From Candidatus Latescibacterota bacterium (GTDB lineage Bacteria; Latescibacterota; UBA2968; UBA8231), in NCBI GenBank assembly GCA_965243025.1, contig CBDETY010000003.1, positions 2,912,001 through 2,976,000 on the forward strand: a DNA stretch of 64,000 nt, read 5' to 3'. The position numbers and the translations under genes were made by a program. The notes below the pieces were generated by a model that made no database searches, was not told the DNA's origin, and worked only from the letters and a program-made list of their open reading frames with translations. Position 1 is the first letter of the stretch. Each line of letters starts with the position of its first letter. Below, one piece after another: positions 2 to 6,332 of this stretch.

Positions 2-2158
2 AACCTGCTCCTCCACAACCAGGGGGACGGAACCTTTCGGGACATCGCGGCCGAGGTCGGTCTCGATCTCGAGAACTTCTGTTCCAGCGCCGCCTTCGCC
101 GACTTCGACAACGACGGCGACCCCGACGTCTTCATTGGCCGCACCTTCGAACGCAGTCTCTACTTCGTCAACGAGGATGGGCGTTTCTACGACCGCTCAG
201 GAACCTTGGCCCTTGCCGCCCTCCCGAATTTCGTGACCTCGATCTCGGCAGCGGACTACAACGGGGACGGGCTGCTCGACGTCTACTTCTCCACCTACGC
301 CCACGACGACACATGGGACCGGCTGCGGGAGGTGCTCGAGCTGATGCCGAGGAGCCAGGCGAGAGAGCTGCTGGCGCGCCGCAGGAAAGGACATCGCTTC
401 CGCGATCACTACGGGCCGCCCAACCTGCTGCTGGTGAACCGGGGTGCCGGCCGCTTCGCCGTGGCGCTGCAGAGCAGCCAACTCGCCCTGTGGCGCAATA
501 CCTTCCAGTCGACCTGGGCGGACTACGACGGCGACGGCGACCCCGATCTCTACGCGGCCAACGACTTCGCCCCCAACAACATGCTGCGCAACGACGGCGA
601 CCGGTTCAGCGACGTCACCGCCGAGACCGGGACCGCCGACATCGGCTTCGGCATGGGGGTGAGCTGGGGGGACTACGACAACGACGGTCTGCAGGACCTG
701 TACGTCTGCAACATGTACAGCAAGGCGGGCCAGCGCATCATGGGCCAGATCCCCGGGCTCGATCCGCGCATCGTCATGCTCGCCGGGGGCAACTCGCTGT
801 TCCGCAACGAGGGCGGGCGCTTCCGCAAGGTCTCCGGCGTCGAGCCCCCCTCCCTGCTCGTCGAAAAGGTCGGCTGGGCCTGGGGAGGCCAGTTCGCCGA
901 CTTCGACAACGACGGATTCCTCGACATCTACTCCCTGTCCGGGTACTACTCCGCTCCCCCGGAGATCGCCATTCCCGAGGCGGACTTGTGAAGCTTCTTC
1001 TGGCGCACGGTCGTGCGCACCGATGAGCAGATCGCCGCGGAGCTGGACTCGACCGGGATGGTCGAACAGCGCTGGAAAGGGGGGGCCACCTCCGGCTGGT
1101 TGGAGGAGCCGGGAGGGGAGATCTCCCTTTCGATCAGCGGGTACGAGCGCAACCGCCTCTTCCTCGGCGCCGGCGGCAGTCAGTTCCGCGACCTGTCGGG
1201 AGTTTCCGGGCTCGACGCGCTGGCCGACGGCCGCGCCTTTGCCCTGACCGACTACGACCGGGACGGCTGGCAGGATGTCGCCGCGGTCAACACCAACGCC
1301 CCGCTGCTGCAACTGTTCCGCAACGACATCGCCGATCGGGGTGGCACCGGGAACACGATCGCCCTCCGTTTCTCGGGGGGCAATCACTCACCCGGGGCCT
1401 CCGCCGGCTTCGGTCCGCGCGACGGGTACGGCGCCATGGTGACGGTATCGGTGGGGGAAACGCAGCTGCTGCGGGAGCACCGCTGCGGCGAGGGGCTGGC
1501 GGCCCAGAACAGCGCCACCATGCTGGTGGGGATCGGCCGCCGGGAGGCTGCCGACGCGGTGGAGGTGCGCTGGCCCGGAGGGGCGGTGCAGCGAACCGGC
1601 CCGGTTTCAGCAGGCACCCTTCTAACGGTCTTCGAAAACCCGTCGCACTCCCCAAATGGAGAGGCCTTCGTCCCCGAGCCGTACCTGAGACCGGCCCCCG
1701 CACCGCCGGCGGGGCCGCCCCGGAAGCAGGAGGCCGGGGAATTCAGCCTTCCTTCGCCGGCCGCGAGTTCCCGAGCCGGAGCGAAACTGCGGATGTACAC
1801 CTCGACCGCCACCTGGTGCCCCTCCTGCAAGGCGAGCCTGCCGCAGCTGCAGGCTCTGCGGGATGCCTTCACCCTCGAGGAGCTGGAGATGACCGGGGTT
1901 CCCGTCGACCCCGGCGAGGGGGAGGAGAAGCTCGACGCCTACGCCGCGAAGTACCGGCCGGCCTACCGGCTGCGCACCGACCTGAGCCCGGAGCAGGCCG
2001 CCTCGTTCGGCGAGACCCTGGCGCGGACCACGGGGCTCGATGCCCTGCCTTCGACGCTGATCACCGCCGCGGACGGAACCATCCTGCTGGGGATCCCGGG
2101 GGTGCCGACGATCTCGGAGATCCGCAGTCTGCTGCGCCGCGGCCGCACCGGGGGGTGA
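2..2158 (+). CDS. FG-GAP repeat + ASPIC/UnbV (CRTAC1-like) protein with C-terminal TlpA/thioredoxin-like domain; probable selenoprotein (UGA at 989-991); 5' truncated by window edge
   Basis: The frame is open from position 2 (NLLLHNQGDGTF...ADFDNDGDPD) and has repeated DxDxDGxxD motifs. Track ORFs 206-991 and 1013-2158 are in the same frame, separated only by TGA + SFFWRTV. An ASPIC-like region (VEVRWPGG) is followed by TATWCPSC at 1805-1828. The alternative reading is two genes, <2-991 and 1013-2158. Confidence 0.8.
989..1022 (+). promoter_or_regulatory. putative bacterial SECIS element (UGA + hairpin)
   Basis: TGA at 989-991, an 11-nt spacer, then stem GCGCAC (1003-1008), loop GGTC (1009-1012) and GTGCGC (1013-1018). 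Spacing and GGUC apex match the E. coli fdhF SECIS. Confidence 0.75.
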
Positions 2159-2450
2159 TCACCTGCCGGCGAACGGCACGAAAGCAGGATCTCCTGTCCG
2201 GTGGGCGAGGGTGACGAATCGATATGAAAACCGCCGGATTTTCGATTCGACCGGCACCCGGACCGGTGGAGCGGACGCGGGGGAACGAAACGACTGCTGC
2301 GGGGGCGACCTTCTCCGAACTGGCACGGTGCTTCGGGAATCAGGGGCCCGGATGACCTCGACTGGTATCCGGCATCCGGAGCGGCCTCCCCTGCTGGCGG
2401 CAGGACAATTCGGCGCGTACTCTGTGCCTGAAACGGAAAGGAGGGGAACG

Positions 2451-3125
2451 GTGGCCGAAATCGTTCTCGAGCCGGAGCGGATTGAGGAGTTCAACCAGCA
2501 GGGATTCGTCGTCCTGCGCCGGCTGATCTCCGAAGAGATGGTCGAGGAGCTGCGGGCGGGGTACGACGAGGCCGTGGCCGGAGGTTACGACGTGCCCGGG
2601 TGGAAGATTGCGCCGGACCGGATCCTGCAGCTCGGAAACCCCAGCAAGAACATCCCCGGGTGGCGCGGCCACCCGTACATGCAGCGCATCGTCGGCGCCG
2701 GCAAACAGCTGCTGGGCGACGACCTCGAATACCGCTACGACCAGCTGATCTTCAAGCCTCCCCACAATCCGGTGGAGCTGCTCTGGCACCAGGACGCCGG
2801 GTACGGCTGGCGCGGCAAGGCAAACTACCGCAGCGGCACCTGCTGGCTGGCGCTGTCCGAGGTGACCACCGGCATGGGAGGCATGCAGTTCATCCCCGGC
2901 AGCCACCTCGAGGGGATCGCCGAGCACGTCGACGCCCGCCACAAGAACCCGATCAATGCCGCCCTCGAGGTAATGGTGGACGAAGGCCGGGCGGTGCAGG
3001 TCGAGTACGGCCCGGGAGACGCGACCATCCACCACGGGCGCACCCTGCACTACACCAGCGGCAACGGCACGGACAGGCCCCGGAGGGGGCTGTCGACCCA
3101 TCTCTGGCCGGAGCCGAACGAGTGA
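2451..3125 (+). CDS. phytanoyl-CoA dioxygenase (PhyH) family 2-oxoglutarate/Fe(II) oxygenase
   Basis: FNQQGFVVLR start, WHQD (HxD), GGMQFIPGSH and distal His in HHGRTLH. GTG start at 2451 follows the RBS GGAGGGG; the track ORF starts at 2211. Confidence 0.85.
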   Translation: MAEIVLEPERIEEFNQQGFVVLRRLISEEMVEELRAGYDEAVAGGYDVPGWKIAPDRILQLGNPSKNIPGWRGHPYMQRIVGAGKQLLGDDLEYRYDQLIFKPPHNPVELLWHQDAGYGWRGKANYRSGTCWLALSEVTTGMGGMQFIPGSHLEGIAEHVDARHKNPINAALEVMVDEGRAVQVEYGPGDATIHHGRTLHYTSGNGTDRPRRGLSTHLWPEPNE

Positions 3126-3132
3126 GGGTCTC

Positions 3133-4635
3133 GTGGCAAACCCCTTCCCCGACATCAATTCGAGGCCGCTTGCGGAGGCGACCAGGCCGTTCCACGCCGG
3201 CTCGGTCCGCCAGCTGCTGTTCGACGATTTCCTCCTGCACATGGCGGACCGCAACCACTGGGACCAGATCGCCTGGAACGTCCGCTTCTCCAACGGCCCC
3301 GTCGAAAAGTCCGACGGCCCGGTCATGGTCAGCGACGCTCCCTTCGAGCAGTCGATGGCCTGGATTTCGGTGATGCGGGAGTCGGGCGGGTACCGAATGT
3401 GGTACAACTCCGTACAGGGCGACCGCCGCGGCATGCGGGTCAGCTACGCCGAGTCGGACGACGGCCTGACCTGGCGGCGGCCGGCTCTCAACCTGCTCGA
3501 GGTCGCCGGCTGCAGCGATCACAACATCGTCTTCGAAGGGGGCCGCGACGGCAACTCCCCGGAGATGGGCGGCGTCTTCAGGGACCCCGCGGCCGAACCG
3601 GGCGAGGAGTACAAGATGGTCTACGCCGAGTGGATCGACCGCCGGCTCTTCGACGCCGGGCAGCCCTCGAACGGGGCGATGCGGGGGGCCTGCTCCGGCG
3701 ACGGCATCCACTGGCAGCGGTACCGCGAAAACTTCACCACCTACTATCCGGATTCGCAGAACGCGGCTTCCTGGGACCCGACCCTGGGCAGGTACGTCTG
3801 CTATCACCGCAGGCTGGCGGGCTTCGGCGGCCTCGACGCCGGCTCCCTGCAGGTCGAGCCGCAGCGCCGGGGGCGCTCGGTCGTGCGCCTGGAATCGGAG
3901 GATTTCCGCACCTGGTCGAACCCGGAGCCCGCCATCGTTCCCGACCTCGAGGACGGGCTCAACACCGACATCTACAACAGCGCCTACAGCCGCCACCCGG
4001 ACAACGACAACGCCCACTACGTGTTCCCGTCGTTCTACCGCCATTTCGAAGGGACCTTCGAGGTGCAGGCGCTGACAAGCCGCGACAACCGCAACTGGGC
4101 CCGCCCCTGCCGCGACACCTTCATCCCCCTCGGAGCGCCCGGGGAGTTCGACTGCTACATCGTCTCCGTCGCCCCCGGGATCGTCCCTGTCGACGGCGAC
4201 ACCTGGGCGCTTTACTACCGCTCGGGAGACGGGCCCCACGCAGGCTGCCGGCCCGTCGAGCTCGACTACGAGCCGGAGAGCAGGGTGGGACGGGTCACTT
4301 TCGGCAGGGACCGGGTGGTCGGCATCGAGGGGAGCGCCGCGGGCGGGCAGTTCTCGCTGCGGCCCCTGGCCTTCGAGGGGAGCGGGCTGGTCGTCAACGC
4401 CGGGCCGACCGGGCCCGACCCGGAAATCCGCGTGCAGCTTGTATCCTCCGAAACCCACGATCCGCTTCCCGGGTACACGTTCGAAGACTGCGAGCCGCTG
4501 CGGAGGGACGGACTGGACCAGCGGCTGCGCTGGAACGGCAGCGCGGCAATCGGGGGAGAGGTGTCCCGGGAATCGCTGCGGCTTCACTTCCGCGTCCGCT
4601 CGATGCGGATCTACGCCTTCCAGTTCGTCGACTGA
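3133..4635 (+). CDS. hypothetical five-bladed beta-propeller glycosidase-like protein (GH32/GH43/GH130-like fold)
   Basis: 500-aa ORF with Asp-box-like motifs YAESDDGLTW, SGDGIHW, SEDFRTW and SRDNRNW, plus a C-terminal beta-sandwich ending LRLHFRVRSMRIYAFQF. Confidence 0.6.
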   Translation: MANPFPDINSRPLAEATRPFHAGSVRQLLFDDFLLHMADRNHWDQIAWNVRFSNGPVEKSDGPVMVSDAPFEQSMAWISVMRESGGYRMWYNSVQGDRRGMRVSYAESDDGLTWRRPALNLLEVAGCSDHNIVFEGGRDGNSPEMGGVFRDPAAEPGEEYKMVYAEWIDRRLFDAGQPSNGAMRGACSGDGIHWQRYRENFTTYYPDSQNAASWDPTLGRYVCYHRRLAGFGGLDAGSLQVEPQRRGRSVVRLESEDFRTWSNPEPAIVPDLEDGLNTDIYNSAYSRHPDNDNAHYVFPSFYRHFEGTFEVQALTSRDNRNWARPCRDTFIPLGAPGEFDCYIVSVAPGIVPVDGDTWALYYRSGDGPHAGCRPVELDYEPESRVGRVTFGRDRVVGIEGSAAGGQFSLRPLAFEGSGLVVNAGPTGPDPEIRVQLVSSETHDPLPGYTFEDCEPLRRDGLDQRLRWNGSAAIGGEVSRESLRLHFRVRSMRIYAFQFVD

Positions 4636-4658: not shown

Positions 4659-6332
4659 CTACTCGGATTCGAAAGGCTCCGTGACGACCAGCACCTGATT
4701 TACCCCCACGTTTTTCAGGGTCTGGGTGATGCCACTCGGCCAGCGCAAGGTCACGCTGTCGACGAGCTCGGCCTTTCCCAGACCGAAATGCGCCCGCATG
4801 TCGTCGTGGCCAAGGTAGCTGCCGCCGCTTCTCACTTCCGCAACCTGACGCCTGCCCCCTGCGTCGATCTCGATTCTCGTTCCGACGCCGTCGCGGTTGC
4901 TGCGCGTGCCGACTGTCTCGATCAGCAGGTAGTTGTTCGAGCTGCCGCCGTCGTTGCGCAACAGGTTGGGAAAGCCGTTGAGATTGAGCACGAAGATATC
5001 GAGATCGCCGTCGTCGTCGTAATCTCCGAAGGCGGCGCCGCGGCTCACCGCTTCGATCCCCAGACCCGGGCCGGCGAGCTTCGAGACCTCGCGGAAGGTG
5101 CCGTCTCCGAGGTTCTCATACAGAAAATTCGGTTGCGCATAGCTCGCGTTGGTGTTAGGCAGGTCGGCCTCGGGATAGGTATGGCCGTTGGCGACGAAGA
5201 TATCCTTGTCGCCGTCGTTGTCGTAGTCGAAAAGGGCGGTACCCCACCCGACCTCGGGGCCACCCACAGCCGCCACTTTCGTCGAGAAGGATGCGTCGAG
5301 AAAAAACCCGGCGCCTTCATTCCGGTAGAGGGCATTGTACTGCCCCTCGAAATTGGTGACGAAGAGGTCGAGACGGCCGTCGCCGTCGTAGTCCCCCACA
5401 CCCACGCCCATGCATCCCTGCTCGGTGCCCCTGGCGCTGAATCCGAGCCCGGATCCGAGAGTTTCGTCGGAAAACGTGCCGTTCTGCCGGTTGATGAACA
5501 GCTTGTTCGGCGTCATGTCATTGGCGACGAAGACATCGGGCCAGCCGTCCTCGTTGAGGTCGACAAAGACCGCGCCGTACGAGTAGTACTTGCGGCCGGA
5601 CATGCCGACGGCGGCAGTCGCCTCGGAGAACGTGCCGTCGCCGTCATTGCGGTAGAAAACGTCAGCCTGGGGGATCATGCCGCGAGGCCCGCAGAGAGTG
5701 TCGTAGCCCTTCCAGTTGCACGGCAGCGTCGACTCGTAATCCAGTGAGAACTCGATGTAGTTGGCGACGTAGGTGTCGAGGTCGCCGTCGAGGTCGTAGT
5801 CGCCGAAGGTCACTCCGGTTCCGTACCCCCCGTCTCCCACTCCAGCCCGTTCGGTAACGTCTTTGAAGGAGGCGTTGCCCGGATTCCTGTAGAGTGTGTT
5901 GCGGCCGAAATTCGCGACGTACAGATCGAGGTGGCCGTCGTTGTCGTAGTCGGCGGCGGAGCACCCCAGGCTCCAGCTCGTATCGCCGACACCGGCGGCG
6001 GCGGTGACGTCGTCGAAGAGGCCGCCCCGATTGCGGTAGAGGTGGTTGAATGGCCTCTCTCCGGCGGGAAAGCCATGAAAGCTCGAACCGTTCACGACGT
6101 AGAGATCGATATCGCCGTCGTCGTCGTAGTCGAAGAACGCCGTCCCGCCGATCGAAGTTTCGACGATAAAAGCCTGGTCCCTGCCTGAAACGTTGCGATC
6201 GGACCCCAGTCCGATCGCTTCGGCAACATCGACGAACTCGACCGGAAAGGAGACAGAAGGACCGGCGACACCCGGCGAAAGAATACAGATCACAAGGGCG
6301 CCGGCGATTGAAGCAACTAATGCAATGGCCAT
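4659..6332 (-). CDS. CRTAC1 family protein (FG-GAP repeats + ASPIC/UnbV)
   Basis: Signal-like N-terminus MAIALVASIAG, many DYDxDGxxDxxVxN repeats, and an ASPIC/UnbV C-terminus (SNRDGVG...GGSYLG...HFGLG...RWPSG). Start moved from 6431 to avoid overlap with the divergent gene. Confidence 0.9.
   Translation of the reverse strand: MAIALVASIAGALVICILSPGVAGPSVSFPVEFVDVAEAIGLGSDRNVSGRDQAFIVETSIGGTAFFDYDDDGDIDLYVVNGSSFHGFPAGERPFNHLYRNRGGLFDDVTAAAGVGDTSWSLGCSAADYDNDGHLDLYVANFGRNTLYRNPGNASFKDVTERAGVGDGGYGTGVTFGDYDLDGDLDTYVANYIEFSLDYESTLPCNWKGYDTLCGPRGMIPQADVFYRNDGDGTFSEATAAVGMSGRKYYSYGAVFVDLNEDGWPDVFVANDMTPNKLFINRQNGTFSDETLGSGLGFSARGTEQGCMGVGVGDYDGDGRLDLFVTNFEGQYNALYRNEGAGFFLDASFSTKVAAVGGPEVGWGTALFDYDNDGDKDIFVANGHTYPEADLPNTNASYAQPNFLYENLGDGTFREVSKLAGPGLGIEAVSRGAAFGDYDDDGDLDIFVLNLNGFPNLLRNDGGSSNNYLLIETVGTRSNRDGVGTRIEIDAGGRRQVAEVRSGGSYLGHDDMRAHFGLGKAELVDSVTLRWPSGITQTLKNVGVNQVLVVTEPFESE

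Follow-up and report, generated by a model that had tools for sequence, protein, structure and literature searches.

A probable selenoprotein with a CRTAC1-like beta-propeller and a C-terminal thioredoxin-like domain in a Latescibacterota bacterium

In Escherichia coli, the selenocysteine (Sec) codon of fdhF is an in-frame UGA followed by a short G+C-rich hairpin with a G-G-U apical loop, a SECIS element whose upper stem carries a bulged U. In catalogued selenoproteins of the thioredoxin (Trx) fold, Sec stands in for one of the Cys residues of the CxxC motif, inside the fold itself (UxxC, UGC). CRTAC1-like proteins, which combine FG-GAP repeats with an ASPIC/UnbV domain, are usually regarded as adhesins, and no CRTAC1 member was described as a selenoprotein in the literature that we searched.

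In this work, we analyzed a gene of a Candidatus Latescibacterota bacterium that shares features with each of these systems. It was found in a 64,000-nucleotide stretch of the genome of this organism (hereafter, the window), and we consider it likely, with a probability of roughly 0.85, that positions 2-2158 of its forward strand are the 3' two-thirds of a single gene encoding a 1026-residue exported protein in which an internal UGA is decoded as Sec. As in fdhF, the in-frame UGA is followed by a short G+C-rich hairpin with a G-G-U apical loop, in a genome where the Sec machinery is present; unlike in fdhF, the 6-bp stem is continuous and the protein that carries the Sec codon bears no relation to formate dehydrogenase. 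The hairpin would work like the fdhF element without being a copy of it: of the fdhF-like SECIS that had been proposed in the original prediction, which was made from the sequence of the window, the GGUC-type loop and the 11-nt spacing fit, whereas the bulged U is absent. With CRTAC1, the protein shares the FG-GAP repeats and the UnbV_ASPIC domain, but identity is only 18% and the family described here has, in addition, an NTF2-like domain at the N-terminus and a TlpA-like domain at the C-terminus. With the Trx-fold selenoproteins, it has in common a putative TlpA/Redoxin-like domain in presumed extracytoplasmic thiol/selenol chemistry; its Trx domain, however, has a plain CxxC, and Sec is located about 275 residues upstream of that motif, in an insert of the propeller. 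The family does not appear in the 2026 catalogue of 119 selenoprotein families.

Reading frame and domain architecture

Two open reading frames in the list obtained for the window, 2..991 and 1013..2158, lie in the same frame and meet as ...IPEADL-TGA-SFFWRTVVRTDE. The former is open at the 5' end of the window, and the segment 206-991, which the original prediction had joined to 1013-2158 through the UGA, is its TTG-started inner portion; the common frame was indeed observed to run over 2..2158. As regards the extent of the gene, the single joined frame stood, but the start does not fall inside the window: it lies 922 bases 5' of it (L001:578), and the part upstream of the window codes for a signal or anchor stretch and the NTF2-like domain. 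Within the full product of 1026 residues, the TGA at 989..991 is codon 638, which we read as Sec. Positions 2..988 (codons 309-637) encode FG-GAP beta-propeller blades ahead of the Sec codon, and positions 992..2155 (codons 639-1026) a helical insert and the final blade or blades of the propeller, followed by the UnbV_ASPIC domain, a linker of 35 residues and the TlpA-like domain. The gene itself ends at 2156..2158, again with TGA, which indicates that this genome does not generally decode TGA as a sense codon. In public gene calls, the 992..2155 part figures as a separate protein of 381 residues starting from the GTG at 1013. Its neighbors in the window, namely a PhyH dioxygenase, a protein of 500 residues that matches no Pfam family and, upstream, an epimerase, gave no clue to the function of the gene.

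The domain order of the protein would be a signal or anchor, the NTF2-like domain, the FG-GAP beta-propeller, UnbV_ASPIC and the TlpA-like thioredoxin domain. The Pfam models PF13517 (147.7 bits) and PF01839 (83.9 bits) both scored above their cut-offs, and so did UnbV_ASPIC (PF07593) at residues 783-850, encoded at 1424..1627 (E = 5.3e-13; 49.1 bits, cut-off 23.4). The putative C-terminal Trx-fold domain, TlpA/ResA-like, covers about residues 900-1023 (1775..2146). Its Pfam scores at residues 900-1003 are just below the gathering cut-offs (AhpC-TSA, 25.6 versus 26; Redoxin, 21.4 versus 26.6), and NCBIfam yielded no model at E ≤ 0.01 apart from weak ResA and TlpA matches. The profile built from alignment A1 retrieves TlpA (1jfu, E = 1.5e-4), and the predicted structural model presents a beta-alpha-beta pattern at 904-1023. 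The WCPSC motif that had been noted in a Trx-fold C-terminus is the CxxC of this domain, formed by Cys914 and Cys917; it is coded at 1814-1828, inside the weak AhpC-TSA/Redoxin match.

The predicted model (pLDDT 87.3, pTM 0.89) has beta strands on either side of the TGA, and a further blade motif of the type Dx[DN]xDG, whose residues D725, D727, D729 and G730 do not vary in alignment A1, is found downstream of it, so that the TGA falls within the propeller, as had been proposed. The top Foldseek match was murine CRTAC1 (9etn_A; E = 1.5e-25; TM 0.39 for the query and 0.70 for the target), which the profile of the family also finds by sequence (E = 3.6e-17). This sequence alignment ends before the Sec site and therefore does not place the D-x-U/E-S-x-x-W-R helix in CRTAC1. 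In the model, U638 is at the N-terminus of a predicted helix, 637-647, and the motif around it, D636-L-U-S639-x-x-W642-R, is invariant at D636, S639 and W642 in alignment A1.

Evidence for selenocysteine insertion

The putative SECIS hairpin, at 1003..1018, consists of a 6-bp stem (GCGCAC/GUGCGC) and a GGUC apical loop. Its layout is exactly as first described, with a spacer of 11 nt after the UGA (992-1002) followed by GCGCAC (1003-1008), GGTC (1009-1012) and GTGCGC (1013-1018). With a 4-nt loop, a 6-bp stem, a UGA-to-loop separation of 17 nt and a stem energy of -10.8 kcal/mol, the hairpin falls within all limits of a published model of bacterial SECIS elements (loop of 3-9 nt, stem of 4-16 bp, G in the first two loop positions, UGA-loop separation of 16-37 nt and MFE ≤ -7.5 kcal/mol; PMC13188914), and 62 of 72 unique Sec-form sequences also have an MFE ≤ -7.5. 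The pattern TGA-N11-GCGYRC-GGTC-GYRCGY occurs a single time in the two strands of the 6.8-Mb genome. For this G+C-rich DNA, the folding energy as such is unremarkable (z = -0.77; 42 of 200 shuffles fold equally well), and the case for a SECIS is founded on the comparison of homologs and not on energy. An Rfam search of 850-1150 returned no family beyond chance matches with E > 1.

Homologs were sought by DNA pattern scans on the contigs of species-representative genomes. The TGA-form pattern retrieved at least 117 stretches; among the loci listed, 76 of 80 were true homologs with TGA at the Sec codon, a codon that the pattern itself required. These 76 homologs belong to five phyla, and in each of them the frame stays open for 200-800 codons both before and after the TGA. 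The recurrence of TGA and hairpin that the original prediction had named as support was indeed encountered. The hairpin is almost identical in sequence across the five phyla. Its loop is GGTC in 62 of the 72 unique Sec forms, the Val codon is GTC in 63, and 63 have G as the third base of the codon that precedes the loop, be it a codon for Thr, Ala or Ser, versus 9 of 36 forms with Glu at the Sec position (Glu forms). The GGUC loop is kept through synonymous sites that are fixed in the Sec forms and not in the Glu forms. The full 6-bp stem is found in 52/72 Sec forms versus 16/36 Glu forms and, since these 16 still have it, the stem is in part a side effect of the W-R-T-x-V-R codons, or else a remnant. 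Considering the stem columns together, 94.8% of the cells are paired and six show compensatory double changes, which none of 500 shuffles equaled. The divergent members L034, L040 and L041 have differing stems and the same GGUC loop.

A search of the genome for the Sec machinery, whose absence would have weighed against the original prediction, detected tRNA-Sec together with the proteins SelA, SelB and SelD (534, 320 and 362 bits, respectively), all above curated cut-offs. The selD gene of this genome carries an in-frame TGA of its own. In addition, SelA is present in all ten other genomes with the TGA form that were searched (10/10).

A true two-gene arrangement, in which translation stops at the TGA at 989-991 and restarts at the GTG at 1013, giving proteins of about 637-638 and 381 residues, would match the way in which databases list the two halves, and an in-frame GTG does exist 21 nt past the TGA. 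We nevertheless consider it very improbable, as the seven codons from TGA to GTG code for the invariant S-x-x-W-R motif, full-length homologs run unbroken over the site and no GGAGG-type ribosome-binding sequence precedes 1013. Furthermore, TGA was the only stop encountered, without a case of TAA or TAG, in the 76 loci, selected by a pattern that required TGA, and in 4 divergent loci that were checked, and neither the fixation of synonymous sites in the hairpin loop in TGA forms only nor the presence of SelA in the carrier genomes would be expected from a simple split. Even less credit can be given to a recent pseudogene or a sequencing error at the TGA, which has nothing in its favor beyond the presence of the stop codon. 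Compared with an ortholog of the same genus (L027; 85% identical, with TGA at the same site and the same end), dN/dS downstream of the TGA (0.284) resembles that upstream of it (0.235), and the TGA is common to that genome, to nine close database relatives (83-99% identical), all of them called as ending in ...ADL, and to the 76 distant homologs. Besides, contigs of four independent runs, one of them from an RNA library, cross 989-991, and no difference was seen within 983-1047 among the rows listed for them; the sequencing error that had been contemplated in the original prediction thus did not materialize in independent assemblies. As far as sequence comparison can do so, a pseudogene or error is refuted.

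From the in-frame UGA, the purifying selection upstream and downstream of it, the presence of Sec machinery in the genome and the cross-phylum conservation of both UGA and hairpin, with its constraint at the RNA level, we infer that the UGA at 989-991 is very likely read as Sec, in line with what had been predicted. SelB and tRNA-Sec would decode it, directed by the GCGCAC-GGUC-GUGCGC hairpin 11 nt downstream.

The residue at the Sec site and the possible role of Sec638

In 111 full-length database homologs, the residue at the Sec site is Glu in 107, Asp in two, Ser in one and Cys in one, in a list that is biased because gene callers split all TGA forms. In the pattern scans, the Glu form matched 55 stretches (38 of the family, two cut at locus ends, five of a distant subfamily and 10 unrelated), and the Cys form matched 19, only one of which is true (P0007/L296). 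The original prediction had looked to Cys as the residue aligned with Sec in homologs; such a homolog exists, but the usual non-Sec residue is Glu and not Cys. In the trees, the Glu clade is nested inside the Sec forms, with 100* support for the key branches, which implies that Sec was exchanged for Glu at least twice, in this entire clade and a second time in the distant subfamily. Sec would then be the ancestral state of the subfamily, and one derived clade would have swapped it for Glu, after which the hairpin and the CxxC would both have decayed. For the distant paralogs L042-L108, the regular expression and the local HMM matched FG-GAP repeats only and did not reach the Sec site.

The CxxC motif is present in all long Sec forms (43/43), none of which has U-x-C, and is kept in 12 of 107 Glu forms. 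Among the short Sec forms, none of which has the Trx domain, U-S-C is found in 11 of 17, and the other six lack U-x-C as well; no conserved CxxC or Trx neighbor gene was seen downstream of these 17 loci. That Sec varies together with a tethered CxxC domain or a neighboring Cys is a strong functional hint, and it speaks for the original suggestion that Sec may be served by the Trx domain of the same protein. Cys335, which is common to the Cys form P0007, was also considered as a resolving thiol and rejected, as Cys occupies this position in a minority of the full-length Sec forms (10/38).

The chemical role of Sec638, as a redox residue or as a metal ligand, is inferred. The chances seem to us about even that Sec638 is a redox-active selenolate whose oxidized form is resolved by a thiol, in an extracytoplasmic enzyme of the reductase or peroxidase type. 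Sec638 would be placed at the N-terminus of a helix, within the most conserved motif of the family; in the long forms, the tethered TlpA-like CxxC would resolve the oxidized Sec, and in the short forms devoid of that domain this would be done by the Cys two residues on (U-S-C). If this is true, at least this branch of CRTAC1-like proteins would be enzymes.

It is possible, though we hold it for doubtful, that Sec is inserted without being a redox catalyst and serves instead a metal or catalytic site as its anionic ligand or nucleophile, in a place where other members of the family have Glu, Asp or Ser, the CxxC or nearby Cys only keeping the easily oxidized selenolate reduced outside the cytoplasm. 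The metal ligand of Mo/W-bisPGD enzymes varies among Sec, Cys, Ser and Asp, which we count in favor of a ligand, and the members of the family differ at the site studied here, where U, E, D, S and C are all found. The replacement of Sec by Glu on at least two occasions points in the same direction, because Cys, and not Glu, is what one would expect in place of a redox nucleophile, and Cys forms are very rare (1/19 pattern matches). The invariance of D636, S639 and W642 beside the site can be added to this, as well as the second fold match after CRTAC1, aldos-2-ulose dehydratase (4a7y; E = 3.8e-8), a propeller enzyme that depends on a metal, although its TM values of 0.28/0.32 are low. On the other hand, the strict link of Sec to a nearby dithiol or thiol (43/43 and 11/17, as given above) is the signature of selenenylsulfide chemistry, and the N-terminus of a helix, where the model places U638, is the usual location of a redox Cys or Sec; both argue for the redox-active selenolate and against a ligand. 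We regard as unlikely that Sec is no substitute for Cys at all and that its selenolate fills the place of a carboxylate in a catalytic or metal site of an unrecognized CRTAC1-like propeller enzyme, with the repeated Sec/Glu exchange setting the fate of the Trx domain; if this were the case, methods based on Sec/Cys pairs would be prone to overlook families of this kind.

Occurrence of the family

That the usual non-Sec counterpart is Glu puts in question the Sec/Cys-pair rule for selenoprotein finding. The family would add a beta-propeller selenoprotein outside the thioredoxin fold, whose Sec form, in species-representative genomes, outnumbers the Glu form and the Cys form, and it constitutes a large family of exported proteins that is routinely annotated as two genes. 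The named matches come for the most part from uncultured MAGs. The family is common in Verrucomicrobiota and Planctomycetota, and is also found in Gemmatimonadota, Acidobacteriota and Poribacteria, including sponge-associated and marine organisms.

A reading frame open on both sides of TGA 989-991

The window corresponds to positions 2912001-2976000 of contig 3 of the genome, and frame 2 of its + strand is open from the first bases up to a TGA at 989-991 and again from that codon as far as the TGA at 2156-2158. The original prediction of a selenoprotein gene was correct as to the shared frame, the in-frame TGA, the hairpin that follows it and the WCPSC domain, but not as to the gene start, which is an ATG located 922 bases upstream of the window's first base. 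The TGA is codon 638 of the gene, whose product is 1026 residues long. Pfam places FG-GAP repeats in it, an UnbV_ASPIC domain at residues 783-850 and a weak AhpC-TSA/Redoxin match at residues 900-1003, slightly below gathering scores; the WCPSC motif lies in this C-terminal domain. FG-GAP repeat genes are very abundant genome-wide (the window's first 2400 bases gave 121 DNA matches) and others occur inside the window near 4992-6131 (-), 10861 and 57756. Despite their number, the TGA-hairpin signature belongs to a single gene in this genome. The next gene downstream (2211-3125, +) encodes a PhyH-family dioxygenase (87 bits), and is followed by one for a 500-residue protein without Pfam match (3133-4635, +).

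The same-genus ortholog is 85% identical over its full length and has the TGA at the identical position and an identical end. Against it, Nei-Gojobori dN/dS is 0.235 upstream of the TGA (637 codons) and 0.284 downstream (388 codons). Although dS is ~0.3, the two genes are identical over the 50 bases that surround the TGA and hairpin. Nine close relatives in the databases, 83-99% identical, are without exception annotated as ending ...ADL, and the downstream half is recorded as a 381-residue protein of its own. The 111 full-length database homologs (43-50% identity) are uninterrupted at the Sec site, with Glu in 107, Asp in two, and Ser and Cys in one each. TGA forms are necessarily missing from this list, as gene callers cut them in two.

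The stretch 600-1400 of the window, whole or in part, or its close relatives were recovered from 11 studies (20 rows of runs), and several of these runs carry sponge or marine metagenome labels; going by these, the host organism may be sponge-associated. Contigs of four runs span 989-991, and the sense codon there that could have explained the TGA as an error did not appear among the differences listed: none of these 40 between run contigs and window, from a table with 21 further rows, falls within 983-1047. A 377-base contig from a metatranscriptomic library spans 900-1275, including the Sec site, which is weak evidence of a single transcript because DNA may be present in an RNA library.

The genome also holds the machinery that the prediction called for, as tRNA-Sec, SelA (534 bits), SelB (320 bits) and SelD (361.8 bits to TIGR00476) were all located, the last outside the window (selD locus L024, G000 contig 3, 31883-32806). 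The selD gene contains one in-frame TGA of its own, so this SelD is probably a selenoprotein too. SelA was detected in 10 of 10 genomes with a TGA form and in three of five with a Glu form. Judged from these sequence comparisons, TGA 989-991 is very likely a genuine selenocysteine codon.

The hairpin in Sec and Glu forms

The hairpin GCGCAC-GGTC-GTGCGC occupies 1003-1018, eleven bases 3' of the TGA. With a 4-nt loop opening with GG, a 6-bp stem, a UGA-loop distance of 17 nt and -10.8 kcal/mol, it falls within all four criteria of the published bacterial SECIS model (PMC13188914), whereas its folding energy alone is not unusual against shuffled window DNA (z -0.77). Of 72 unique Sec-form sequences, 62 have a GGTC loop and 52 an intact 6-bp stem; the stem has one mismatch in 17 and two in three. 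In 63 of the 72 the codon preceding the loop has G as its last base (ACG 45, GCG 13, TCG 5), and this G is therefore kept across three different amino acids; the codon next to it is GTC, likewise in 63. The stem is partly dictated by the W-R-T-x-V-R codons; across 74 aligned Sec forms, 94.8% of stem cells are paired and double changes occur in six cells at two pairs (UA, AU and GC replacing CG), a result that none of 500 shuffles matched. Divergent members carry the GGUC loop on other stems (GCGCGU/AUGCGC, CGGCA/UGCCG, GCGAC/GUCGC).

In 36 unique Glu-form sequences the Thr codon is ACC (20), ACG (9), ACA (4) or ACT (3), and the loop codon encodes Met (ATG). The stem GCGCAC...GTGCGC is still complete around this Met codon in 16 of them (loci L226-L280), while stem changes such as GCGGAC/GTGCGC are uncompensated. 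The Glu-form stem looks like a decaying SECIS relic, consistent with the derived place of these forms in the trees.

Distribution and history of the family

The pattern D-x-TGA-[ST]-x-[LF]-W-R-x-x-V-R, run against species representatives (a single genome for each species), returned at least 117 stretches. The TGA recurs in homologs, as predicted: 76 of the 80 loci listed have it in frame within the same motif, with 200-800 open codons to either side; the other four are chance matches. Record labels assign TGA forms to Verrucomicrobiota, Planctomycetota, Gemmatimonadota, Acidobacteriota and Poribacteria, and one MAG is labelled Gammaproteobacteria. A protein search brought in four divergent members (29-44% identity), which likewise have TGA at the Sec site. 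With GAR (Glu) at this site the pattern gave 55 stretches, comprising 38 counted family members, two more cut at locus ends, five from a more distant subfamily and 10 unrelated to the family; with TGY (Cys) it gave 19, one of them a family member, identical with the Cys form P0007 counted among the 111 homologs. Several individual MAGs have at least two TGA-form paralogs, located on separate contigs (loci L116/L175, L127/L133, L128/L131, L173/L182 and L123/L178), so the family has expanded as selenoproteins inside genomes.

A full-text literature search returned nothing relevant tying FG-GAP, UnbV, ASPIC or CRTAC1 to selenoproteins or selenocysteine, and FG-GAP, ASPIC, UnbV, CRTAC, VCBS and propeller are absent from the main text of PMC13188914, PMC12013277, PMC13326102, PMC2398784 and PMC9312934. 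Table 1 of a 2026 review lists 119 selenoprotein families or subfamilies, none with FG-GAP/UnbV_ASPIC domains, and the NCBIfam models of its families gave no match to the protein at E <= 0.01. The UGA/SECIS system is of a known kind; the selenoprotein family is widespread and new, being uncatalogued or at most a listed candidate.

With the distant subfamily as root, two trees were built: FastTree was run on 87 rows, with two of every three Glu rows omitted, and IQ-TREE in a quick search on 45 rows x 932 columns, with further rows omitted. In both, all Glu/Asp forms of the subfamily make up one clade whose successive sisters are Sec forms (supports 100*, 100* and 84-89); the Cys form adjoins the clade that contains the window's gene, and the Ser form sits among Sec forms. 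Within the distant subfamily a Glu clade is nested again, and its successive sisters are two Sec forms (support 90-93). Because Glu clades are nested among Sec forms, Sec is likely the ancestral state of the subfamily, replaced by Glu at least twice. Hairpin and CxxC likely decayed after the replacement; P0013 and P0019, basal among the Glu forms, still carry WCPSC. The record of L145, the Sec form sister to the whole Glu clade, names Akkermansia muciniphila, a label that looks doubtful for an environmental-type gene.

Structure and possible chemistry of Sec638

In an AlphaFold2 model from a 91-sequence alignment (pLDDT 87.3, pTM 0.89), residue 638 lies at the N-terminal end of a predicted helix (637-647) that belongs to a helical insert between blades, and D636, S639 and W642 are invariant in the alignment. 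The 60 Sec forms with a complete 3' end fall into 43 long and 17 short ones. Every one of the 43 long forms carries CxxC in its TlpA-like C-terminal domain and lacks Cys at +2; the short forms are without this domain and 11 of the 17 have U-S-C. Glu forms keep the TlpA-like domain, and CxxC is retained in only 12 of 107. Such complementarity is the pattern expected if a thiol, from either a local Cys or the tethered TlpA-like domain, were to resolve oxidised Sec, and we put the probability of this redox cycle at about one half. It is odd that a redox nucleophile should give way to Glu and not to Cys; such a replacement fits an anionic ligand or base at position 638, and the thiols would then only protect the selenolate. 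We regard this alternative as less likely than the redox cycle.

The top fold match of the model is murine CRTAC1 (9etn_A, E 1.5e-25), and the next matches, of low TM, are chains of aldos-2-ulose dehydratase, a metal-dependent propeller enzyme. For the N-terminal domain the model shows an NTF2/SnoaL-like fold, for which the matches are weak (E about 5e-4). Export of the protein is suggested by its N-terminus, where a charged stretch is followed by a hydrophobic one and pLDDT is low at residues 1-38, and by the TlpA-like domain.
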